Assembly (NCBI RefSeq): GCF_001677475.2
Contig: NZ_CP015229.1
Strand: one strand, 5' to 3'
Length of the DNA: 64,000 nucleotides
Source: Escherichia coli
GTDB taxonomy: Bacteria; Pseudomonadota; Gammaproteobacteria; Enterobacterales; Enterobacteriaceae
The notes beneath the pieces were generated by a model. The model was not told the origin of the DNA. It saw only the letters and a list, made by a program, of their open reading frames with translations, and searched no databases. The number at the start of each line of letters is the position of its first letter. Within the stretch, counting starts at the first letter, position 1. A program made the translations under genes and the position numbers. This document shows positions 4,856-64,000 of this stretch, piece after piece.

Positions 4856-6877
4856 ATGCGTCTAAACCCCGGCCAACAACAAGCTGTCGAATTCGTTACC
4901 GGCCCCTGCCTGGTGCTGGCAGGCGCGGGTTCCGGTAAAACTCGTGTCATCACCAATAAAATCGCCCATCTGATCCGCGGTTGCGGTTATCAGGCGCGAC
5001 ATATCGCGGCGGTGACCTTTACCAATAAGGCGGCGCGCGAGATGAAAGAGCGTGTCGGGCAGACGCTGGGGCGCAAAGAGGCGCGCGGGCTGATGATCTC
5101 CACCTTCCACACGCTGGGGCTGGATATCATCAAGCGTGAGTACGCGGCGTTGGGGATGAAAGCGAACTTTTCGCTGTTTGATGACACCGATCAGCTGGCG
5201 TTGCTTAAAGAGCTGACCGAGGGGCTGATTGAAGATGACAAAGTCCTCCTGCAACAGCTGATTTCGACCATTTCTAACTGGAAGAACGATCTCAAAACAC
5301 CGTCCCAGGCGGCAGCAAGTGCGATTGGCGAGCGGGACCGTATTTTTGCCCATTGTTATGGGCTGTATGATGCACACCTGAAAGCCTGTAACGTTCTCGA
5401 CTTCGATGATCTGATTTTATTGCCGACGTTGCTGCTGCAACGCAATGAAGAAGTCCGCGAGCGCTGGCAGAACAAAATTCGCTACCTGCTGGTGGACGAA
5501 TATCAGGACACCAACACCAGCCAGTATGAACTGGTGAAACTGCTGGTGGGCAGCCGCGCGCGCTTTACCGTGGTGGGGGACGATGACCAGTCGATCTACT
5601 CCTGGCGCGGCGCACGTCCGCAAAACCTGGTGCTGCTGAGTCAGGATTTTCCGGCGCTGAAGGTGATTAAGCTTGAGCAGAACTACCGCTCTTCCGGACG
5701 TATTTTGAAAGCGGCGAACATCCTGATCGCCAATAATCCGCACGTCTTTGAAAAGCGTCTGTTCTCCGAACTGGGTTACGGCACAGAGCTAAAAGTTTTA
5801 AGCGCGAATAACGAAGAACATGAAGCCGAGCGCGTTACTGGCGAGCTGATCGCCCATCACTTCGTCAATAAAACGCAGTACAAAGATTACGCCATTCTTT
5901 ATCGCGGTAACCATCAGTCGCGGGTGTTTGAAAAATTCCTGATGCAAAACCGCATCCCGTACAAAATTTCTGGTGGTACGTCGTTTTTCTCTCGTCCTGA
6001 AATCAAGGACTTGCTGGCTTATCTGCGCGTGCTGACTAACCCGGACGATGACAGCGCATTTCTGCGTATCGTTAACACGCCGAAGCGAGAGATTGGCCCG
6101 GCGACGCTGAAAAAGCTGGGTGAGTGGGCGATGACGCGCAATAAAAGCATGTTTACCGCCAGCTTTGATATGGGCCTGAGTCAGACGCTTAGCGGACGTG
6201 GTTATGAAGCATTGACCCGCTTCACTCACTGGTTGGCAGAAATCCAGCGCCTGGCGGAGCGGGAGCCGATTGCTGCGGTGCGTGATCTAATCCATGGCAT
6301 GGATTATGAATCCTGGCTGTACGAAACATCGCCCAGCCCGAAAGCCGCCGAAATGCGCATGAAGAACGTCAACCAACTGTTTAGCTGGATGACGGAGATG
6401 CTGGAAGGCAGCGAACTGGATGAGCCGATGACGCTCACCCAGGTGGTGACGCGCTTTACTTTGCGCGACATGATGGAGCGTGGTGAGAGTGAAGAAGAGC
6501 TGGATCAGGTGCAACTGATGACTCTGCACGCGTCGAAAGGGCTGGAGTTTCCTTATGTCTACATGGTCGGTATGGAAGAAGGGTTTTTGCCGCACCAGAG
6601 CAGTATCGATGAAGATAATATCGATGAGGAGCGGCGGTTGGCCTATGTCGGCATTACCCGCGCCCAGAAGGAATTGACCTTTACGCTGTGTAAAGAACGC
6701 CGTCAGTACGGCGAACTGGTGCGCCCGGAGCCGAGCCGCTTTTTGCTGGAGCTGCCGCAGGATGATCTGATTTGGGAACAGGAGCGCAAAGTGGTCAGCG
6801 CCGAAGAACGGATGCAGAAAGGGCAAAGCCATCTGGCGAATCTGAAAGCGATGATGGCGGCAAAACGAGGGAAATAA
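4856..6877 (+). CDS. rep: ATP-dependent DNA helicase Rep
   Basis: Translation from ATG 4856 [31 protein letters not shown]..., 673 aa, UvrD/Rep SF1 helicase motifs. Confidence 0.95.
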
Positions 6878-52859: not shown

Positions 52860-53480
52860 ATGTTGATGTTATTCCTCACCGTCGCCATGGTGCACATTGT
52901 GGCGCTTATGAGCCCCGGTCCCGATTTCTTTTTTGTCTCTCAGACCGCTGTCAGTCGTTCCCGTAAAGAAGCGATGATGGGCGTGCTGGGCATTACCTGC
53001 GGCGTAATGGTTTGGGCTGGGATTGCGTTGCTTGGCCTGCATTTGATTATCGAAAAAATGGCCTGGCTGCATACGCTAATTATGGTGGGCGGTGGCCTGT
53101 ATCTCTGCTGGATGGGTTACCAGATGCTACGCGGCGCACTGAAAAAAGAGGCTGTATCTGCGCCTGCACCACAGGTTGAGCTGGCGAAAAGCGGGCGCAG
53201 TTTCCTGAAAGGCTTACTGACCAATCTCGCCAATCCGAAAGCGATTATCTACTTTGGCTCGGTGTTCTCGCTGTTTGTTGGCGATAACGTCGGCACTACC
53301 GAACGCTGGGGCATTTTTGCGTTGATTATTATCGAAACGCTGGCGTGGTTTACCGTTGTTGCCAGCCTGTTTGCGCTACCGCAAATGCGCAGGGGTTATC
53401 AACGTCTGGCGAAGTGGATCGACGGTTTTGCCGGAGCGTTATTTGCCGGATTTGGCATTCATTTGATTATTTCGCGTTGA
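52860..53480 (+). CDS. rhtC: Threonine efflux protein (LysE/RhtB family)
   Basis: 206-aa LysE-type translation MLMLFLTVAMVHIVALMSPGPDFFFVSQTAVSRSRKEAMMGVLGI... Confidence 0.93.
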   Translation: MLMLFLTVAMVHIVALMSPGPDFFFVSQTAVSRSRKEAMMGVLGITCGVMVWAGIALLGLHLIIEKMAWLHTLIMVGGGLYLCWMGYQMLRGALKKEAVSAPAPQVELAKSGRSFLKGLLTNLANPKAIIYFGSVFSLFVGDNVGTTERWGIFALIIIETLAWFTVVASLFALPQMRRGYQRLAKWIDGFAGALFAGFGIHLIISR

Positions 53481-53499
53481 TGCCAGACGCATTATCAGA

Positions 53500-53533
53500 G
53501 TAGGTCGGATAAGGCGTTTACGCCGCATCCGAC
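53500..53533. repeat. REP element between convergent rhtC and rhtB
   Basis: gtaggtcggataaggcgtttacgccgcatccgac. Confidence 0.7.
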
Positions 53534-53540
53534 ATTATTT

Positions 53541-54161
53541 TCAGGCATGTCTTGCCGATGCCAACAGCGCCCCCACCAGCATAAACAGCGAGCCGAATAT
53601 CTTATTCAGCGCCTTCATCTGTTTCGGCCCTTTAATCCAGAGTGCGATTCGTTGGGCGAGGGTGGCGTAACCGATCATCACAATAATATCGACCACAATA
53701 GTGGTGACGCCGAGCACGATATACTGCATCAGTTGCGGCTGTTGCGGCATGATGAATTGCGGAAATAGCGCCGCCAGAAACACAATACTTTTGGGATTGG
53801 TGAGATTCACAAAAACTGCGCGCTGGAACAAATGTCGACGTGATTGAGTAGAGGCCAGCGATTTAAGATCAATTGCGCCAGCGGCGCGCCACTGCTGGAT
53901 CCCAAGCCAAATCAGATAAGCTGCGCCCGCCCACTTCAACACTTCAAACGCAATCACTGAGCGGGAAAACAGCGTCCCCAAACCTACGCCAACCAGCACA
54001 ATATGAATCGCCAGTCCGGTCTGAAGCCCAGCAATAGACGCCACCGCGCCGCGATAACCGTGGTTGAGCGAGGTGGTCATGGTGTTGATTGCGCCAGAGC
54101 CTGGCGACAGGCTTAAAATGATCGATGTCAGCAGGTAGGCAAACCACCATTCTAAGGTCAT
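53541..54161 (-). CDS. rhtB: Homoserine/homoserine-lactone efflux protein (LysE/RhtB family)
   Basis: 206-aa translation [39 protein letters not shown]... Confidence 0.93.
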
Positions 54162-54271
54162 GATGAACTCCCGGTGTGTCTATTTTTGTGCCACAATACG
54201 CTACTGTCGCAGCGTTGTGTCAGGCACGCTTAAAAAAACGATTTTACGTGGTTTAAGAGGCAGATTACCCG

Positions 54272-55294
54272 ATGTTTCAGCAGCAAAAAGACTGGGAAAC
54301 AAGAGAAAACGCGTTTGCTGCTTTTACCATGGGACCGCTGACTGATTTCTGGCGTCAGCGTGATGAAGCAGAGTTTACTGGTGTGGATGACATTCCGGTG
54401 CGCTTTGTCCGTTTTCGCGCACAGCACCATGACCGGGTGGTAGTCATCTGCCCGGGGCGTATTGAGAGCTACGTAAAATATGCGGAACTGGCCTACGACC
54501 TGTTCCATTTGGGGTTTGATGTCTTAATCATCGACCATCGCGGGCAGGGACGTTCCGGTCGCCTGTTAGCCGATCCGCATCTCGGGCATGTTAATCGCTT
54601 TAATGATTATGTTGATGATCTGGCGGCATTCTGGCAACAGGAGGTTCAGCCCGGTCCGTGGCGTAAACGCTATATACTGGCGCACTCGATGGGCGGTGCG
54701 ATCACCACATTATTTCTGCAACGCCATCCTGGGGTATGCGACGCCATTGCGCTAACTGCGCCAATGTTTGGGATCGTGATTCGTATGCCGTCATTTATGG
54801 CACGGCAGATCCTCAACTGGGCCGAAGCGCATCCACGTTTCCGCGATGGCTATGCAATAGGCACCGGGCGCTGGCGCGCGTTGCCGTTTGCTATCAACGT
54901 ACTGACCCACAGCAGACAGCGATATCGACGTAACTTACGCTTCTATGCTGATGACCCAACGATTCGCGTCGGTGGGCCGACCTACCATTGGGTACGCGAA
55001 AGTATTCTGGCTGGCGAACAGGTGTTAGCCGGTGCGGGTGATGACGCCACGCCAACGCTTCTCTTACAAGCTGAAGAGGAACGCGTGGTGGATAACCGCA
55101 TGCACGACCGTTTTTGTGAACTCCGCACCGCCGCGGGCCATCCTGTCGAAGGTGGACGGCCGTTGGTAATTAAAGGTGCGTACCATGAGATCCTTTTTGA
55201 AAAGGACGCAATGCGCTCAGTCGCGCTCCACGCCATCGTTGATTTTTTCAACAGGCATAACTCACCCAGCGGAAACCGCTCTACAGAGGTTTAA
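54272..55294 (+). CDS. pldB: Lysophospholipase L2
   Basis: 340-aa alpha/beta hydrolase with GHSMGG nucleophile elbow. Confidence 0.93.
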   Translation: MFQQQKDWETRENAFAAFTMGPLTDFWRQRDEAEFTGVDDIPVRFVRFRAQHHDRVVVICPGRIESYVKYAELAYDLFHLGFDVLIIDHRGQGRSGRLLADPHLGHVNRFNDYVDDLAAFWQQEVQPGPWRKRYILAHSMGGAITTLFLQRHPGVCDAIALTAPMFGIVIRMPSFMARQILNWAEAHPRFRDGYAIGTGRWRALPFAINVLTHSRQRYRRNLRFYADDPTIRVGGPTYHWVRESILAGEQVLAGAGDDATPTLLLQAEEERVVDNRMHDRFCELRTAAGHPVEGGRPLVIKGAYHEILFEKDAMRSVALHAIVDFFNRHNSPSGNRSTEV

Positions 55295-55301
55295 ATTTCT
55301 T

Positions 55302-56102
55302 ATGTACCAGGTTGTTGCGTCTGATTTAGATGGCACGTTACTTTCTCCCGACCATACGTTATCCCCTTACGCCAAAGAAACTCTGAAGCTGCTCACCGCG
55401 CGCGGCATCAACTTTGTGTTTGCGACCGGTCGTCACCACGTTGATGTGGGGCAAATTCGCGATAATCTGGAGATTAAGTCTTACATGATTACCTCCAATG
55501 GTGCGCGCGTTCACGATCTGGATGGTAATCTGATTTTTGCTCATAACCTGGATCGCGACATTGCCAGCGATCTGTTTGGCGTAGTCAACGACAATCCGGA
55601 CATCATTACTAACGTTTATCGCGACGACGAATGGTTTATGAATCGCCATCGCCCGGAAGAGATGCGCTTTTTTAAAGAAGCGGTGTTCAAATATGCGCTG
55701 TATGAGCCTGGATTACTGGAGCCGGAAGGCGTCAGCAAAGTGTTTTTCACCTGCGATTCCCATGAACAACTGCTGCCGCTGGAGCAGGCGATTAACGCTC
55801 GCTGGGGCGATCGCGTCAACGTCAGTTTCTCTACCTTAACCTGTCTGGAAGTGATGGCGGGCGGCGTGTCGAAAGGCCATGCGCTGGAAGCAGTGGCGAA
55901 GAAACTGGGCTACAGCCTGAAGGATTGTATTGCGTTTGGTGACGGGATGAACGACGCCGAAATGCTGTCGATGGCGGGGAAAGGCTGCATTATGGGCAGT
56001 GCGCACCAGCGTCTGAAAGATCTGCATCCGGAGCTGGAAGTGATTGGTACTAATGCCGACGACGCGGTGCCGCATTATCTGCGTAAACTCTATTTATCGT
56101 AA
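55302..56102 (+). CDS. yigL: HAD-family (Cof-type) sugar/pyridoxal phosphate phosphatase
   Basis: Translation from ATG 55302 MYQVVASDLDGTLLSPDHTLSPYAKETLKLLTARGINFVFATGRHH..., 266 aa. Confidence 0.9.
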   Translation: MYQVVASDLDGTLLSPDHTLSPYAKETLKLLTARGINFVFATGRHHVDVGQIRDNLEIKSYMITSNGARVHDLDGNLIFAHNLDRDIASDLFGVVNDNPDIITNVYRDDEWFMNRHRPEEMRFFKEAVFKYALYEPGLLEPEGVSKVFFTCDSHEQLLPLEQAINARWGDRVNVSFSTLTCLEVMAGGVSKGHALEAVAKKLGYSLKDCIAFGDGMNDAEMLSMAGKGCIMGSAHQRLKDLHPELEVIGTNADDAVPHYLRKLYLS

Positions 56103-56177
56103 TCGTTCTTTATTTGGTCAGTTGTCAACCTGATACTTCGCTACAATGGATACTCGTTAATCAAAGAGTTTTCCATT

Positions 56178-57077
56178 GTGGCGCTACTTATCATCACCAC
56201 GATTCTGTGGGCCTTCTCCTTTAGCTTTTATGGCGAGTACCTTGCGGGGCACGTCGATAGCTATTTTGCGGTGCTGGCGCGCGTTGGCCTGGCGGCACTC
56301 GTTTTTCTGCCGTTTCTGCGTACCCGTGGCAATAGCCTGAAAACAGTCGGCCTGTATATGCTGGTGGGCGCGATGCAGCTCGGCGTGATGTATATGCTGA
56401 GTTTCCGCGCCTATCTCTACCTGACGGTCTCTGAACTGCTGCTGTTTACCGTGCTGACGCCGCTCTACATCACGCTGATTTATGACATTATGAGCAGACG
56501 TCGTCTGCGCTGGGGCTATGCCTTTAGCGCCTTGCTGGCGGTGATTGGTGCCGGGATTATTCGCTATGATCAGGTCACCGACCATTTCTGGACTGGCTTG
56601 TTGCTGGTGCAACTCTCCAATATCACTTTTGCCATCGGCATGGTGGGTTACAAACGCCTGATGGAAACTCGCCCGATGCCGCAGCATAACGCCTTTGCGT
56701 GGTTCTATCTTGGCGCGTTCCTGGTGGCGGTAATTGCATGGTTCTTGCTGGGCAATACGCAGAAAATGCCGGAAACAACGCTGCAATGGGGCATTCTGGT
56801 ATTTCTTGGCGTGGTGGCTTCAGGGATTGGCTACTTTATGTGGAACTACGGCGCGACGCAGGTGGACGCCGGAACGCTCGGCATTATGAACAATATGCAC
56901 GTTCCGGCAGGGCTGCTGGTTAACCTGGCTATCTGGCACCAACAGCCGCACTGGCCAACGTTTATTACAGGCGCGCTGGTGATCCTGGCCTCACTGTGGG
57001 TGCATCGTAAGTGGGTCGCTCCGCGCTCTTCACAAACGGCAGATGATCGCAGGCGTGATTGCGCGCTGAGCGAATAA
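56178..57077 (+). CDS. yigM: DMT/EamA-family transporter (biotin transporter YigM/BioP)
   Basis: 299-aa 10-TM translation; 3' end overlaps the convergent metR by 113 nt. Confidence 0.85.
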
Positions 57078-57918
57078 ACGCTTCCGTAACTGGCTGACGC
57101 TGCTCTCCATCGCGCACGGCGGCGTAAAGTCGGCTCCACAAGCCTTCGCCCAGGGTTTTGGTCACCACCAGAACCTGGCGTTCAAAACTCTCTACTACCC
57201 AATGCGGTAGCGCGGCAATACCCATCCGCGCGGCAACCATCTGAATCAACAATAAGGTGTTATCGACGCTTTTCAGTGACGGGCTGACGCCTGCCGGCTG
57301 AAGAAAATGCCGCCAGACATCCAGTCGACTACGCTGTACCGGATAAATCAACAGCGTCTCGCTGGCTAGATCTTCCGGTGTAATTCGCGTTTTCGCCGCC
57401 AGTGGATGGTCAGGTGCTAACACCAGACGCACTTCATAATCGAACATCGGCGAATAATGCAGGCCACTGCGCGGCAGAATATCGGAGGTCATCACCAGAT
57501 CCAGCTCGCCCTGCTGCAACGCAGGCTGCGGGTCAAACGTTACGCCTGATTTAAAATCCATCTCGACCTGCGGCCAGTTCTTATGGAAATTTTCTAACGC
57601 GGGTGTCAGCCACTGAATACAGCTATGGCACTCAATGGCAATACGCAGGCGCGTTTGCTGCGGTTCATTGCAGGCTTGCAGTGCCTGACTGATTTGCGGC
57701 AGTACCTGGTTTGCCAGTTGCAATAGGATTTCTCCCTGCGGCGTAAAACGTAGCGGCTGGCTTTTACGCACAAATAGCCGGAAGCCAAGGCGTTGTTCCA
57801 GATCGCTAAACTGGTGAGACAGGGCGGATTGCGTCTGATGCAACGTCGCCGCAGCGGCTGCGAGCGAGCCGCAATTCCGCAACGCTTGTAGCGTTTTCAG
57901 GTGTTTTACTTCGATCAT
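56965..57918 (-). CDS. metR: LysR-family transcriptional activator of metE/metH
   Basis: 317-aa translation [63 protein letters not shown]...; divergent from metE. Confidence 0.95.
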
Positions 57919-58035
57919 GAAAGTCCTTCACTTCGGCATGAATAATTTGCGCTTGAGGAATATACAGTAACCGCCAATTATGGATGTGTAAACATCTGGA
58001 CGGCTAAATACTAAAAATTCCATAAGGGGCATATA
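57919..58035. promoter_or_regulatory. metR/metE divergent control region (MetR and MetJ sites expected)
   Basis: 117-nt spacer; contains aaacatctggacggctaaat with tandem met-box-like octamers (consensus AGACGTCT). Confidence 0.5.
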
Positions 58036-60297
58036 ATGACAATTCTTAATCACACCCTCGGTTTCCCTCGCGTTGGCCTGCGTCGCGAGCTGAAAAAAGC
58101 GCAAGAAAGTTATTGGGCGGGGAACTCCACGCGTGAAGAATTACTGGCAGTAGGGCGTGAATTGCGTGCTCGTCACTGGGATCAACAAAAGCAGGCGGGT
58201 ATCGACCTGCTGCCGGTGGGCGATTTTGCCTGGTACGATCATGTTCTGACCACCAGCCTGCTGCTGGGTAACGTTCCGGCGCGTCATCAGAATAAAGACG
58301 GTTCGGTGGATATCGACACCCTGTTCCGTATTGGTCGCGGTCGTGCGCCAACTGGTGAACCTGCGGCGGCGGCAGAAATGACCAAATGGTTTAACACCAA
58401 CTATCACTACATGGTGCCGGAATTCGTTAAAGGCCAACAGTTCAAACTGACCTGGACGCAGCTGCTGGATGAAGTAGACGAGGCGCTGGCGTTGGGTCAC
58501 AAGGTGAAACCTGTGCTTCTGGGGCCGGTTACCTGGCTGTGGCTGGGTAAGGTGAAAGGTGAACAGTTTGACCGCCTGAGCCTGCTGAACGACATTCTGC
58601 CGGTTTATCAGCAGGTTCTGGCAGAACTGGCCAAACGTGGTATTGAGTGGGTACAGATTGACGAACCGGCGCTGGTGCTGGAACTGCCGCAGGCGTGGCT
58701 GGATGCGTATAAACCTGCTTACGATGCACTCCAGGGGCAGGTGAAACTGCTGCTGACCACCTATTTTGAAGGTGTAACGCCAAACCTTGACACGATTACT
58801 GCGCTGCCTGTTCAGGGGCTGCATGTGGACCTTGTACATGGTAAAGATGACGTTGTTGAACTGCACAAGCGTTTGCCTTCTGACTGGTTGCTGTCTGCGG
58901 GTCTGATCAATGGTCGTAACGTCTGGCGCGCCGATCTCACCGAGAAATATGCGCAAATTAAGGACATTGTCGGCAAACGTGATTTGTGGGTGGCATCTTC
59001 CTGCTCACTGCTGCATAGCCCCATCGACCTGAGCGTGGAAACGCGTCTTGATGTAGAAGTGAAAAGCTGGTTTGCCTTCGCCCTACAAAAATGCCATGAA
59101 CTGGCACTGCTGCGCGATGCGCTGAACAGTGGTGACACGGCAGCTCTGGCAGAGTGGAGCGCCCCAATTCAGGCGCGTCGTCACTCAACCCGCGTACATA
59201 ATCCGGCGGTAGAAAAGCGTCTGGCAGCGATCACCGCCCAGGACAGCCAGCGTGAGAATGTCTATGAAGTGCGTGCCGAAGCTCAGCGTGCGCGTTTTAA
59301 ACTGCCAGCGTGGCCGACCACCACGATTGGTTCTTTCCCGCAAACCACGGAAATTCGTACCCTGCGTCTGGATTTCAAAAAGGGTAATCTCGACGCCAAC
59401 AACTACCGCACGGGCATTGCGGAACATATCAAGCAGGCCATTGTTGAGCAGGAACGTTTAGGACTGGATGTGCTGGTACATGGCGAGGCTGAGCGTAATG
59501 ACATGGTGGAATACTTTGGCGAGCACCTCGACGGGTTTGTCTTTACGCAAAACGGTTGGGTACAGAGCTACGGTTCCCGCTGCGTGAAGCCACCGATTGT
59601 TATTGGTGACGTTAGCCGCCCGGCACCGATTACCGTGGAGTGGGCGAAGTATGCGCAATCGCTGACCGACAAACCGGTGAAAGGGATGCTGACCGGCCCG
59701 GTGACGATTCTCTGCTGGTCGTTCCCGCGTGAAGATGTCAGCCGTGAAACCATCGCCAAACAAATTGCGCTGGCGCTGCGTGATGAAGTGGCGGACCTGG
59801 AAGCCGCAGGAATTGGCATCATCCAGATTGATGAACCGGCGCTGCGCGAAGGTTTACCGCTGCGTCGCAGCGACTGGGATGCCTATCTCCAGTGGGGCGT
59901 GGAGGCTTTCCGTATCAACGCCGCCGTGGCGAAAGATGACACACAAATCCACACTCACATGTGTTACTGCGAGTTCAACGACATCATGGATTCGATTGCT
60001 GCACTGGACGCAGACGTCATCACCATCGAAACCTCGCGTTCTGACATGGAGTTGCTGGAGTCGTTCGAAGAGTTTGATTATCCGAATGAAATCGGTCCAG
60101 GCGTCTATGACATTCACTCGCCAAACGTACCGAGCGTGGAATGGATTGAAGCCTTGCTGAAGAAAGCGGCAAAACGCATTCCGGCAGAGCGCCTGTGGGT
60201 CAACCCGGACTGTGGCCTGAAAACGCGCGGCTGGCCAGAAACCCGCGCGGCACTGGCGAACATGGTGCAGGCGGCGCAGAATTTGCGTCGGGGATGA
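58036..60297 (+). CDS. metE: Cobalamin-independent methionine synthase
   Basis: 753-aa translation [48 protein letters not shown]... Confidence 0.96.
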
Positions 60298-60333
60298 TGA
60301 ATATTAACGAGTCACTGTAAATTGCAGTACGAT

Positions 60334-60364
60334 AATGGCTTCCAGCACTGGAAGCCATTTTGCT
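60334..60364 (+). terminator. Intrinsic terminator after metE
   Basis: aatggcttcca / tggaagccatt stem followed by ttttgct. Confidence 0.65.
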
Positions 60365-60390
60365 ATGTGTGCTGGGTATTAAAAGGATTC

Positions 60391-61287
60391 TCAGGAACAG
60401 AAAATTAATTGCGGATTTCTTAAATATTCCATGCACCACTGGCAGGCTTTGCCCATACCATCGGAACGAGCGGCAAGAAATAACTTGGTGGCGTGTTTAT
60501 GTTCGCGCATTGGCTTTTTAAGCAATTTACCGCTGTTTAATAATGGCAATGCCAGATGATGTGGAATATAGCCAATACCGACGTTTTGTTCTATTAAGGC
60601 GATTGCCGTAGCGAAGTCAGGAACAAAAATGGGTTTTTGTCCTTCCAACAGCCAGGCTTGCATCGGGGGAAAGTTAACGGAGGTATCGCGGATACAAACC
60701 GCCGGATAATGACGCAATTCACTGTTTTCTAATGGATGCCGCTTCGCTGCCAGTGGGTGGAGTGGGCTGACGACAAAATCCCATTCCATTTGTCCGATCG
60801 GTTCGCTAATGATGCCTTCACTGCTTGGCACTGCATGAGGAGCACCGTAGACCAGATCGGCACGCTTACTGTACAGAGCATCCCAGCAGCCGTTGTATAC
60901 CTCAAGATCAACCGTCAGCGTTGTTGATGTGAATTGCCGTTCAAAATCTCGAATAAATGCCACCAGCAAATCACCAGGAATAATATTGTTCACCGCAATT
61001 GTTAGTTCACGCTCAATACCATCGTGAATCAGCACTGTGTTGCGCTTTAATGCTTCCAGGTCGCCAAGAATAGTTTTGCTATGTTCGATGAAGTAACTCC
61101 CCGCCGGAGATAATTCAATATAGCGTCCCTTACGAATGAACAGTTCAACGCCCAGGCTCTCTTCCGCTTTCTTGATGGTGTAACTGATGGCGGAAGGGAC
61201 TTTATTTAACTGCTCGGCTGCGGTGGTAATGCTCTGGTGTCTGGCGACCAGATGAATAACACGAAGCGTTTCGTCTGAGATGAACAT
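60391..61287 (-). CDS. LysR-family regulator, AllS-like (allantoin-regulon activator paralog)
   Basis: 298-aa translation MFISDETLRVIHLVARHQSITTAAEQLNKVPSAISYTIKKAEESLGVELF...; motifs NDGIERE...IAVNN, W-DFVVSPLHPLA, YPAVCIRD, GQKPIFVPD, GIGYIP resemble AllS as I remember it. Confidence 0.75.
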   Translation of the reverse strand: MFISDETLRVIHLVARHQSITTAAEQLNKVPSAISYTIKKAEESLGVELFIRKGRYIELSPAGSYFIEHSKTILGDLEALKRNTVLIHDGIERELTIAVNNIIPGDLLVAFIRDFERQFTSTTLTVDLEVYNGCWDALYSKRADLVYGAPHAVPSSEGIISEPIGQMEWDFVVSPLHPLAAKRHPLENSELRHYPAVCIRDTSVNFPPMQAWLLEGQKPIFVPDFATAIALIEQNVGIGYIPHHLALPLLNSGKLLKKPMREHKHATKLFLAARSDGMGKACQWCMEYLRNPQLIFCS

Positions 61288-61364
61288 AAGGCTCCCTGGT
61301 CAGTGGTAAAGTGGCTGAATCTCTCCAGATTCAGCCGTAATCATTGCTTGAGTATACTCAGGAA

Positions 61365-62588
61365 TTAGCGGCGTTGACTTGCCCGACTGAGAATCGCATA
61401 CGCGATACATGCCACCAGAATCGAGTCTACCGAAGGGATCGTCGTCAGGGTGAATAAGCCTTTGACGGTCATAAAGCCAACCGCTGCGCCTATGATCCAT
61501 GCCGCGAATGTCAGCACTTTAATCTGTGACTCCTGGGCTAACACTGACTCTTGATAGCCATTACGGCGATAAAGGAAAAAGTCAGCGATATAAATTCCGG
61601 CAACGGGTGGCGTGGCGATACCGAGGAACAGCAGAAACGGAATAAACCACGCCATAATATCCAGACTGCCTACGATGGCGGAAAGGATACCCAGCGCCAC
61701 GGTAATCTGCCATTTTGGAAAGCGGGTAAGCAGTGTGGAAACCACCAGCGTGCCCTGGAACATATTGCCCGCGTTACCGGTGACGCAGGCGAAAATCAAC
61801 AACAGCGCCGCGGGCAGAACCGCACCGAATACCGCCATAGCACCCAGTAAAGATCCCTGACCACTAATGGCGCTCGGCGTTGCACCCGCCCAGTAGAGCA
61901 GAGGGTAGGCAACCAGAAACGTCACGCTTGCGGCAATCAGCGCATGTTTGCGGTTATGCACAAAACTACCGAAATCAGGCAGTGTGGCAACCAGCACAAT
62001 AATGGTGCCAACAACGGTGGAAACGGCGACACCCGTATTCATCTCCACAATCGCCGCTGGTGCTGTCACTTCGGTATGGGTTGCCACATAGAGGATGTAA
62101 CACAGCACCAGCGCGATAACCGGCACGGCAACCTGGGCAATTTTTCCCAGAACGGCAAAACCAAATGCCGTAGAGGCGATAAAAATGACACAGCCAGCCG
62201 CCACTAACAGTGCTAGTGGAACTTCCAGTCCATGTTGAGCCAGTAAGTCATGTACCGAATGACCAAACATATTGGCGGTAACGGCAATCCAGCCGAACAG
62301 ACTTATCGCCATCAAAATGTTAATGGCGATGGCCCCTTTTTCGCCAAACGAATATTTCACAATGCCATACGTTGGCAGGCGGGCTTTTTCTCCCACGCTA
62401 ATAGTGATGGCTGAAAGTAAGGTCAGAATGACGCCGCCTAACAATACGACGCTAATTAAACTGCCGCTGGAAAGTTGATTGCCGAGGCTTGAGGATGACA
62501 ACAGCACAGGTGTGACGGCAATACCCAACAAAATCATGGCAATACGCAATCCTGATGCCGTATTCAGACTCTCTTCTTTTTTACGCAT
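61365..62588 (-). CDS. NCS1-family permease, CodB-like (cytosine/purine/ureide-type transporter)
   Basis: 407-aa polytopic membrane protein; blocks YSFGEKG, LPDFGSFVHNRK, PPVAGIYIADFFLYRR align with CodB FSFGVKG, TADFVRFGRNAK, PPVGGVIIADYLMNRR. Confidence 0.75.
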   Translation of the reverse strand: MRKKEESLNTASGLRIAMILLGIAVTPVLLSSSSLGNQLSSGSLISVVLLGGVILTLLSAITISVGEKARLPTYGIVKYSFGEKGAIAINILMAISLFGWIAVTANMFGHSVHDLLAQHGLEVPLALLVAAGCVIFIASTAFGFAVLGKIAQVAVPVIALVLCYILYVATHTEVTAPAAIVEMNTGVAVSTVVGTIIVLVATLPDFGSFVHNRKHALIAASVTFLVAYPLLYWAGATPSAISGQGSLLGAMAVFGAVLPAALLLIFACVTGNAGNMFQGTLVVSTLLTRFPKWQITVALGILSAIVGSLDIMAWFIPFLLFLGIATPPVAGIYIADFFLYRRNGYQESVLAQESQIKVLTFAAWIIGAAVGFMTVKGLFTLTTIPSVDSILVACIAYAILSRASQRR

Positions 62589-62613
62589 AGTATGTTCCCT
62601 TTAAAAATGCGCG

Positions 62614-63003
62614 TTACACAGTATGAAAATGCCCGGTGTATTTGCGCCAGCTACCCAGTTCTGTAATTTCCCGTTGGCCTTCTGTGAGCCAGTTTTCAGC
62701 CAGTACACCGAGCACTTCGCTACCATCGGCAAGTTTGATTTTGCCTATTGCCAGCCCGGCAGGTTCGCTCATTAACAGAGCGGCAAAACTGGCCAGCGGT
62801 AGTTGCCAAATTTCTACGTCGACGTGTGTTCCACCTTCATTCACGCGAATCATTCCTGGATGGCGATCGTTAATACTCCACAGCCGGTAATGGGCGTCAG
62901 TTCTGTCTTCACGGACAAAAATGCCGCCCGCTTTTTGCATATTTGGGTTAAGTTCCAGGCCGCGCATCAGTGTTCCGTTAACGGCTAAAAGCGTTGTAGT
63001 CAT
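62614..63003 (-). CDS. Stand-alone AIG2/GGCT-fold protein resembling the C-terminal domain of allophanate hydrolase
   Basis: 129-aa translation MTTTLLAVNGTLMRGLELNPNMQKAGG...AHYRLWSI...VDVEIWQLPLASFAALL...LAIGKIKLADGSEVLGVLAE...ELGSWRKY follows the conserved pattern of that domain as I remember it. Confidence 0.6.
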   Translation of the reverse strand: MTTTLLAVNGTLMRGLELNPNMQKAGGIFVREDRTDAHYRLWSINDRHPGMIRVNEGGTHVDVEIWQLPLASFAALLMSEPAGLAIGKIKLADGSEVLGVLAENWLTEGQREITELGSWRKYTGHFHTV

Positions 63004-63019
63004 TATGTTCTCCAGAAAA

Positions 63020-63976
63020 TTAAAGGGTTATCCATGTACCGCTCTGATGCGCCAGGGCCGCTTTTATGGTTTGCGGTGAGGTAATCAGGCCGCTGGCCTG
63101 TTTGCCTTGTTGCTGGCTGGTATTGATGAAATCAACAATGGCTTCCACTTTGGGTTGCATACTGCCGACACCAAATTGACCTTCCCGCAACAGTGTTTGC
63201 GCTTCGGCAACGCTAATGGCGTCGAGCCACTGTTGTTGTGGTGTACCAAAGTTAATCGCCACTTTTTCTACTCCGGTGGGTATCACCAGCAGATCCGCAC
63301 CTAACTGACTGGCGAGCAGCGCGGAGGCCAGATCTTTATCGATCACGGCTTCCACACCTTTCAGTTGTTGCCCGTCTCGCACCACCGGAATGCCGCCGCC
63401 GCCGCAGGCAATAACCAGATATCCCTGTCGCACCAGATGAGCGATGGTGTTGTGTTCAATAATTTCCAGTGGCGCAGGAGAGGGAACCGTACGCCGCCAC
63501 CCGCGCCCGGCATCCTCCATCAGAGTCCAGCCGAGCTGCTGCTGGCGTTGTTGGGCCGTTGCTTCATCGAGAAACGCGCCAATCGGTTTACTGGGGCTGG
63601 CGAAAGCATCGTCATGTGGGCTAACTCGCGTTTGTGTCACTAGCGCAATTACCGGTTTGTTTATGCCACGGCGAGCGAGTTCGTTATGCAGCGCCTTCTG
63701 GAACATGTAGCCAATTGCGCCTTGTGTATCACCCACGGCGTAATCAAGCGGAACCGGAGAAACTTCGTTACAAGCAAGTTCAGAGCGACGCAGAATAAAG
63801 CCCACCTGCGGTCCATTACCGTGGGTTAGCACCAGATCCCATCCGGCTTCAACCATATCAACGATATGCTGCACGCTTTCCATCACTGCAACATATTGAT
63901 CGGGAATACTATTGTGTTGATCGTCTTGAATGAGCGCATTGCCGCCAACCGCGACAACAGCCAGTGGCTTAACCAT
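63020..63976 (-). CDS. Carbamate kinase-family protein (YahI/YbcF/YqeA-like paralog)
   Basis: 318-aa translation MVKPLAVVAVGGNALIQDD...DLVLTHGNGPQVG...DTQGAIGYM...KPIGAF...EDAGRGWRR...ACGGGGIPVV...VIDKDL; SD aaaggag 7 nt upstream of ATG. Confidence 0.85.
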   Translation of the reverse strand: MVKPLAVVAVGGNALIQDDQHNSIPDQYVAVMESVQHIVDMVEAGWDLVLTHGNGPQVGFILRRSELACNEVSPVPLDYAVGDTQGAIGYMFQKALHNELARRGINKPVIALVTQTRVSPHDDAFASPSKPIGAFLDEATAQQRQQQLGWTLMEDAGRGWRRTVPSPAPLEIIEHNTIAHLVRQGYLVIACGGGGIPVVRDGQQLKGVEAVIDKDLASALLASQLGADLLVIPTGVEKVAINFGTPQQQWLDAISVAEAQTLLREGQFGVGSMQPKVEAIVDFINTSQQQGKQASGLITSPQTIKAALAHQSGTWITL

Positions 63977-64000
63977 GATGATTCTCCTTTGCGACGATCT

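Follow-up and report, generated by a model that had tools for sequence, protein, structure and literature searches.

The window analyzed here is a 64,000-nucleotide stretch of Escherichia coli DNA (NCBI RefSeq assembly GCF_001677475.2, contig NZ_CP015229.1), and its last part, directly after metE, holds genes that raise two questions: what do they do together, and which compound do they serve? A preliminary description of the same DNA had read them as a carbamate kinase paralog, a stand-alone protein resembling the C-terminal domain of allophanate hydrolase, a CodB-like NCS1 permease, and an AllS-like LysR regulator. It had also likened them to the AllS/NCS1/carbamate-kinase branch of allantoin catabolism, with a pyrimidine- or hydantoin-like compound as the suspected substrate. 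In this study, we found that these genes make up the promoter-distal half of a horizontally mobile catabolic operon. Judging from its gene families, the operon quite probably converts an imported ureide to carbamoyl phosphate and then to adenosine triphosphate (ATP) and ammonia; we tentatively propose triuret as that ureide.

An eight-gene operon extends past the window

Positions 60391–64000 of the window contain four co-oriented open reading frames on the minus strand, separated by gaps of 77, 25, and 16 nucleotides, exactly as first described, and the end of a fifth gene:

60391–61287, minus strand: LysR-type regulator, 298 residues (Pfam HTH_1 and LysR_substrate)
61365–62588, minus strand: NCS1-family permease, 407 residues (Pfam Transp_cyt_pur, PF02133)
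62614–63003, minus strand: stand-alone AH_C/GGCT-fold protein, 129 residues (Pfam AH_C, PF21986)
63020–63976, minus strand: carbamate kinase, 318 residues (TIGR00746, NF009007)
63969–64000, minus strand: 3' end of an AllG-like (DUF1116) gene, truncated where the window stops (translation IVAKENHHG*)

The last ten codons of the AllG-like gene occupy 63969–63998 and overlap the start of the carbamate kinase gene by 8 nucleotides, which suggests translational coupling. Many assemblies encode the identical kinase protein, and one contig (L002; GCA_012921415.1) matches window positions 53020–64000 with 100% identity. Beyond the window end, L002 continues with the AllG-like gene, an AllF/FdrA-like gene, an AllH-like gene, and a cysteine hydrolase of the isochorismatase family (222 residues), followed by ysgA, udp, and rmuC. 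The preliminary description had expected an amidohydrolase or a carbamoyltransferase past position 64000, and this extension reveals both. Pfam assigns the three subunits to HMA_AllF_N plus Ligase_CoA, AllG, and AllH; for the AllH-like protein there is no matching NCBIfam model, and its family is given by a precomputed Pfam match.

The complete cassette therefore comprises eight genes over about 8.5 kilobases (kb), in the order hydrolase, AllH-like, AllF-like, AllG-like, kinase, AH_C, NCS1, and LysR. Neighboring genes are spaced by 5–94 nucleotides or overlap by 4 and 8 nucleotides, an arrangement that fits a single operon.

The cassette is conserved across genera

Seven of these genes, from the hydrolase to the NCS1 permease, keep this order in Paraburkholderia, Silvimonas, Photobacterium, Psychrobacter, and Dyella; the flanks of these five non-Escherichia cassettes are unrelated. 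Together with the Escherichia cassette, these neighborhoods make up the six same-order cassettes referred to below. A seventh cassette lies on a contig of 68.5% guanine-plus-cytosine (GC) content, where the same content appears in another order: a PucR-family regulator, AllH-AllF-AllG-kinase, a TrtA-type hydrolase (63% identity), a multi-pass membrane protein without a family match, and an AH_C protein (47% identity) with the same VNGTLMRGLxLNPN motif. This conservation of content despite the shuffled order and the exchange of permease and regulator for non-homologous proteins suggests that the encoded functions belong to a single pathway. All seven cassettes lack a ring-opening enzyme, a urease, an amidase-type allophanate hydrolase, and a second biuret hydrolase.

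The regulator gene is less constant. A co-oriented downstream LysR gene, as in Escherichia, is found in three of the five other same-order neighborhoods (Paraburkholderia, Silvimonas, and Dyella), and Paraburkholderia carries an extra LysR copy upstream. In Photobacterium the LysR gene lies upstream, and in Psychrobacter no LysR gene is adjacent. The distal, co-oriented position of the regulator had been called unusual; the position itself is as described, but it is conserved in the Paraburkholderia, Silvimonas, and Dyella cassettes.

The hydrolase carries the residues of triuret hydrolase

When compared with solved structures, the cysteine hydrolase scored highest against TrtA of Herbaspirillum (6xix; 271 bits), followed by two BiuH enzymes (approximately 234 bits) and RutB (101 bits). 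Its best NCBIfam match is the BiuH equivalog model NF050097, with a score below the cut-off (279.2 vs. 370 bits). It is approximately 56–59% identical to characterized TrtA and approximately 51% identical to the crystallized BiuH enzymes. The hydrolase is also the most conserved gene of the cassette, with 82–83% identity.

The catalytic triad (Asp24, Lys129, and Cys162) and the substrate ligands Glu72, Lys132, and Gln202 are present in all six same-order cassette hydrolases. Moreover, six positions part TrtA from the BiuH consensus, namely, Phe35, Asn41, Ala134, Glu160, Tyr187, and Ile205 (PMC7948467). All six are TrtA-type (F N A E Y I) in each of the six cassette hydrolases, whereas Rhizobium BiuH has Y Y S D T V. 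Clustering at 50% identity merges the cassette hydrolases with TrtA, and relatives were classed by these signature residues rather than by a tree; on this basis, the nearest 50%-cluster representatives (59–66% identity) are TrtA-type, and BiuH-type sequences appear at 57% identity or less. TrtA converts triuret to 1-carboxybiuret (H2N-CO-NH-CO-NH-COO-; half-life, about 20 minutes); the enzyme's relative activity on biuret is approximately 10^-5, and single changes towards BiuH gave no useful biuret activity (PMC7948467).

In the trtA-(trtB)-biuH-atzF pathway of Herbaspirillum and Rhizobium (PMC7948467), the hydrolase has the same full set of catalytic and discriminating residues as the cassette enzyme. 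In contrast, the cassette lacks BiuH, TrtB, and the amidase-type AtzF and encodes a carbamoyltransferase-type complex, a carbamate kinase, and a stand-alone AH_C protein instead. These different downstream enzymes imply that breakdown may be phosphorolytic and ATP-yielding, as opposed to purely hydrolytic.

Two relatives of the hydrolase have composite architectures. One (P0130, 357 residues) fuses a TrtA-type domain to a SnoaL/NTF2 domain, and the other (P0121, 498 residues) is a tandem of a BiuH-type N-terminal and a TrtA-type C-terminal domain. AtzH is a member of the NTF2 superfamily (PMC6219798), and we infer that the carboxybiuret decarboxylase TrtB is related to this AtzH/NTF2 superfamily.

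The carbamoyltransferase-type complex is a third paralogue group

Three subunits, of the FdrA, DUF1116/AllG, and DUF2877/AllH families, are encoded together in the cassette, next to the carbamate kinase. The AllF-like subunit passes the cut-off of the FdrA subfamily model NF004760 (494.8 vs. 433 bits). The kinase, first described as a carbamate kinase paralog, passes both curated cut-offs (TIGR00746, 365.5 vs. 358.25 bits; NF009007, 375.6 vs. 266 bits), and it is 48% identical to YahI and 39% identical to AllK. In K-12, AllFGH uses phosphate to split oxalurate into oxamate and carbamoyl phosphate, and the catabolic kinase coupled to this reaction is AllK (PMC11326118, PMC9843812).

Similar to allFGH-allK of K-12 (fdrA-ylbE-ylbF-ybcF), the cassette combines an FdrA/DUF1116/DUF2877 enzyme with a following carbamate kinase, and, as proposed here, it would likewise degrade a ureide to carbamoyl phosphate and gain ATP from the latter. 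Both the allantoin system and the cassette also include an NCS1 permease and a LysR activator of the AllS/PunR/YahB type, so that the gene content agrees with the parallel drawn in the preliminary description. However, the F, G, and H subunits are only 40%, 48%, and 32% identical to AllF, AllG, and AllH, the order is H-F-G-K, no all genes are adjacent, and the TrtA-type hydrolase and the AH_C protein are additional. Furthermore, AllB, AllC, AllD, and AllE are missing, and the cassette is accessory and mobile rather than core.

The gene order is that of the uncharacterized K-12 cluster yahEFG-yahI-yahJ, in which DUF2877, FdrA-like, DUF1116, and kinase genes follow each other and the LysR gene yahB is nearby. 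Identities to this cluster are 26–48% overall (42%, 46%, and 26% for the F, G, and H subunits with YahF, YahG, and YahE). The yah cluster differs from the cassette in that the metallo-amidohydrolase YahJ takes the place of the cysteine hydrolase and neither an AH_C protein nor an NCS1 permease is encoded. Collectively, these comparisons indicate that the putative complex is a third paralogue group and not an orthologue of the oxalurate enzyme AllFGH.

In ammonia oxidizers, biuH or trtA has been found beside allFGHK, sometimes with codB, and the authors infer two separate pathways (PMC12625717). The conserved cassette suggests that the neighboring genes may instead belong to one pathway; in the literature searched, we found no paper proposing a single pathway for trtA and allFGHK.

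The AH_C protein belongs to a distinct stand-alone subfamily

The 129-residue protein is 100% identical over residues 1–129 to the structure deposited as PDB 5c5z (c4763, uropathogen-specific). Its match to the allophanate hydrolase models is confined to their C-terminal part (profile positions 440–562 of 563 and 472–595 of 600). It scores 99 bits against the TIGR02713 cut-off of 511 and has no amidase-signature domain. Its first reading as a stand-alone protein resembling the C-terminal part of allophanate hydrolase thus holds. Many database records and PDB 5c5z name this protein "glutamyl-tRNA amidotransferase" despite the missing amidase domain, a label that looks like a carry-over from the amidase-signature family of allophanate hydrolase.

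Stand-alone homologues that are 66–98% identical occur in Enterobacterales, Burkholderiales, Neisseriales, Vibrionales, Moraxellales, and Xanthomonadales. Across 109 stand-alone homologues, the motif AVNGTLMRGLxLN does not vary, whereas the C domains of fused allophanate hydrolases have AVVGAHL.G.PLH. In addition, His492 of the yeast allophanate hydrolase KlAH aligns with Leu12, which is invariant in the same 109 proteins, and Glu64 and Glu103 are shared. Fan et al. in 2013 reportedly proposed His492 as catalytic in the breakdown of N-carboxycarbamate. The dimer interface of the allophanate hydrolase C domain has been described as containing glycines (PMC5770610). As judged from the alignment, the stand-alone proteins form a distinct, tightly conserved subfamily with several invariant basic residues.

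A putative route from triuret to ATP and ammonia

Based on the gene content and the signature residues, we propose a substrate and an order of steps for the cassette. The NCS1 permease would import a small planar acylurea, most likely triuret (carbonyldiurea) or a close analogue. Triuret is a product of uric acid oxidation and an impurity of urea. The TrtA-type hydrolase would remove one terminal amide as ammonia, yielding an N-carboxy acylurea (1-carboxybiuret) that resembles oxalurate (H2N-CO-NH-CO-COO-) in shape and charge. This compound could then be phosphorolysed by the AllH/F/G-like complex, which would transfer the terminal carbamoyl group to phosphate and leave allophanate; allophanate might be processed likewise to give carbamate. 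From carbamoyl phosphate and adenosine diphosphate, the carbamate kinase would form ATP and carbamate, and the latter would decay to ammonia and carbon dioxide. The c4763-type AH_C protein may handle the unstable N-carboxylated intermediate or shield it against decarboxylation to biuret or urea, and the LysR protein would activate the operon. E. coli is not known to have a biuret hydrolase or an allophanate hydrolase and usually has no urease, and spontaneous decarboxylation to biuret or urea would therefore be a dead end. Such decay of N-carboxy intermediates to dead-end biuret or urea has been described for Pseudomonas sp. ADP (PMC6219798).

We hold triuret and carboxybiuret as the substrates tentatively, with a confidence somewhat short of even, and several points weigh against them. 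The assignment is drawn from sequence comparison, and the identity of the hydrolase to characterized TrtA is only approximately 56–59%. The signature of six residues was derived from a comparison of TrtA with BiuH only, so that a third specificity sharing it is possible. Although characterized trtA sits with both biuH and atzF, these two genes are absent from all seven cassettes. Furthermore, no AllFGH-type enzyme on record accepts carboxybiuret or allophanate, the AH_C protein has no residue equivalent to His492 of KlAH, and the availability of triuret in the gut or urine is poorly documented.

The kinship of the complex with AllFGH raises the alternative of a second oxalurate/oxamate route. 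An AllH/F/G-like isozyme would act on imported oxalurate or parabanate, which are oxidation products of urate and allantoin, and the hydrolase would deamidate oxamate or a related amide and thereby extend the K-12 pathway, which ends at oxamate. The AllF-like subunit does fall into the FdrA subfamily, the F and G subunits are 40–48% identical to AllF and AllG, and AllFGH is the sole characterized member of this enzyme type (PMC11326118); the regulators also point to purines (PunR and AllS model scores in Escherichia and PucR in the rearranged 68.5%-GC version). However, the subunits are equally close to the uncharacterized YahEFG, the H-F-G-K order is that of yah, and the pocket residues of the hydrolase are those of TrtA, a binder of a neutral three-ureide chain. 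No obvious role would be left for the AH_C protein, and we regard this route as unlikely. Biuret is a further candidate, as the hydrolase would convert it to allophanate and the AllH/F/G-like enzyme would split allophanate into carbamoyl phosphate and carbamate, replacing allophanate hydrolase. The missed BiuH cut-off of 370 bits, the six TrtA-type residues, the approximately 10^-5 relative activity of TrtA on biuret, and the failure of single changes towards BiuH to create useful biuret activity (PMC7948467) make this quite improbable, even though the BiuH model is the best NCBIfam match (279 bits), the crystallized BiuH enzymes are approximately 51% identical, biuH adjoins allFGHK in nitrifiers (PMC12625717), and the cassettes contain no allophanate hydrolase amidase.

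For the same chromosomal region in strain BEN2908 (GR29), a Rut-like pyrimidine route has been suggested, with import of cytosine or uracil and a RutB-like hydrolase acting on a ureido-acid (PMC12928451). The resemblances behind it are weak for both the hydrolase (101 bits to RutB; 31.8% identity according to PMC12928451) and the permease (148 bits to CodB). We rejected this route as very unlikely: no RutA-type ring-opening monooxygenase, dihydropyrimidinase, or deaminase is present in the seven cassettes, the hydrolase is far nearer to TrtA and BiuH than to RutB, and the permease is under the CodB cut-off. Similarly, the pyrimidine- or hydantoin-like substrate of the preliminary description gives way to a linear triuret-type acylurea as the likelier compound, considering the hydrolase scores (271 bits to TrtA vs. 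101 bits to RutB), the TrtA signature, and the missing ring-opening enzyme. The c4763 structure paper, as summarized in PMC7558591, points to a urease-independent urea route through allophanate, in keeping with the resemblance of c4763 in fold and sequence to the C-terminal domain of allophanate hydrolase. This proposal was also rejected and appears highly improbable, as neither a urea carboxylase nor an amidase-signature domain is encoded in or beside any cassette and the His492 equivalent is an invariant Leu in the AH_C subfamily.

Returning to triuret as the preferred substrate, the sequence comparisons allow a broader proposal, which we consider possible but doubtful: the cassette may encode an undescribed energy-conserving poly-ureide route in which an AllFGH-type carboxybiuret/allophanate carbamoyltransferase replaces the hydrolytic allophanate hydrolase and up to two ATP are gained per triuret, with the c4763-type protein as a new enzyme or chaperone for N-carboxylated intermediates. 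The spread of the cassette in chromosomes of extraintestinal pathogenic E. coli (ExPEC) and on conjugative IncF plasmids would then reflect that uric-acid oxidation products are exploited in urine, inflamed tissue, or the avian gut. If the triuret route proposed above holds, triuret-type compounds would be fermentable for ATP, beyond mere hydrolysis. AllFGH, an enzyme type discovered only recently and with an orphan K-12 paralogue in YahEFG, would gain a second substrate class, and the structurally solved but functionless c4763 would gain a role. The route would also explain the biuret and triuret hydrolase genes beside allFGHK in ammonia-oxidizing archaea and comammox Nitrospira. Moreover, it would supply a function for an island of most B2 ExPEC and of large conjugative IncF plasmids. 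If the route fails, the region is an ordinary, already catalogued accessory metabolic island.

Permease, regulator, and a candidate operator

The permease position is conserved in all six same-order cassettes with 61–76% identity. The NCS1 assignment stands (PF02133), but the CodB-like label does not: on the CodB model NF008241, the protein scores 148.3 bits against a cut-off of 326, and the predicted permease is not a CodB orthologue. The regulator likewise belongs to the LysR family by its domains, but its similarity to AllS does not exceed that to YahB or PunR. It scores below the cut-offs of both the PunR model (287.1 vs. 345 bits) and the AllS model (214.6 vs. 372 bits) and is 35% identical to YahB and 34% identical to AllS. 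It is probably an activator whose signal would be the substrate or a pathway intermediate.

Upstream of the hydrolase gene, five of the six same-order cassettes carry the motif TC[AG]AAA-N2-TTTG, which occurs once elsewhere in approximately 117 kb (both strands). The exception is the Psychrobacter cassette, the one without an adjacent LysR gene. The candidate operator, in the form ATCRAAA-N2-TTTG, lies upstream of the first cassette gene at these positions:

L002 (E. coli), 5216–5228
L010, 4065
L011, 4304
L012, 4354
L014, 4116

In E. coli, a second similar repeat, AAAAATTTCGTTGCTG, is found approximately 70 nucleotides downstream of the first candidate operator. The pattern was derived from the same sequences in which it was counted, and we treat it as a lead and not as a result. 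A promoter scan yielded nothing convincing in the cassette part of the window or in the examined interval upstream of the hydrolase gene, with counts below the shuffle expectation.

Distribution, known island, and mobility

Among 5426 complete E. coli genomes, 1555 (approximately 29%) carry at least 80% of window positions 60200–64000, and the direct metE-LysR junction is found in only 363. K-12 has no copy, so that the accessory status inferred from the window is borne out. In two chicken isolates (NZ_CP148483.1 and NZ_CP148498.1), an inserted IS4-like ISVsa5 element divides the match to 60200–64000 into two parts.

The region is already catalogued, and the preliminary description had missed this literature. 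It is the "tkt1 genomic island" between metE and ysgA of B2 ExPEC, a 16-kb segment that includes tkt1, a phosphotransferase system (PTS) IIBC gene, a sugar isomerase, and RpiR (PMC3349570); it has also been termed GR29 in strain BEN2908, whose cassette open reading frames were compared only with CodB, YqeA, YahG, FdrA, and RutB (PMC12928451); and c4763 is PDB 5c5z. In the lineage of the window, the same eight-gene cassette occupies the same chromosomal site. In contrast to the 16-kb form, the window has a short form of 8 kb without the sugar isomerase-PTS-tkt1-RpiR module. Our observations add to the earlier descriptions the cassette synteny across genera, the rearranged 68.5%-GC version, and the six TrtA-type residues.

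Besides residing between metE and ysgA, the cassette moves on plasmids. All eight genes are present, with 93–94% identity, on 81 E. coli and Klebsiella plasmids, each of which is typed as conjugative. On the inspected plasmid (NZ_CP104593.1, 100522–108700; IncFIA/FIB/FIC), the cassette adjoins an iron ATP-binding cassette transporter and bacteriocin-immunity genes.

The window itself seems to derive from a divergent Escherichia lineage for which complete genomes are scarce, because its core segment 40000–48000 (uvrD-corA-xerC, 8 kb) is no more than 98.4% identical to any of the 5426 complete E. coli genomes. The best cassette match among these genomes is 96.9%, and the closest records include soil and wild-bird isolates.

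A cassette-bearing E. coli (contig L001, 24506–29945) has a 5.5-kb islet between udp and rmuC that is absent from the lineage of the window (L002, 3168–3309). Its genes encode a TctABC-type transporter, a 2-dehydro-3-deoxygalactonokinase, an aldolase, and an IclR regulator, and it matches the "small islet" of PMC3349570.

The metE junction and base composition

The metE gene ends at 60297, and the stop codon of the LysR gene follows 93 nucleotides further on. Two features lie here:

60298..60390, no strand assigned: metE-LysR junction, the spacer between the two stop codons
60334–60359, plus strand: hairpin with a perfect 11-bp stem followed by UUUU (sequence and folding)

The 56-nucleotide fold around the hairpin has an energy of -23.7 kcal/mol (z = -3.8, plus strand), in line with the terminator originally placed after metE, and the hairpin is likely a terminator common to both convergent transcription units. 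It was judged by folding; a consensus terminator scan of the window did not list it because its T-run is short. In K-12, as the preliminary description had stated, the sequence after metE differs: the identity to the window ends at the metE stop codon, only 39 nucleotides separate metE from the convergent ysgA, and the cassette genes are absent.

A lower GC content than the flanks had also been noted. This applies weakly to the region as a whole (50.4% for 60298–64000, 52.5% for the remaining window, and 55.4% for metE) and clearly to the LysR gene alone (46.9%), the only cassette gene in the window with a distinctly low value. Elsewhere in the window, bioP (56178–57077, plus strand) and metR (56965–57918, minus strand) overlap convergently by 113 nucleotides, an ordinary arrangement that is annotated likewise in K-12.

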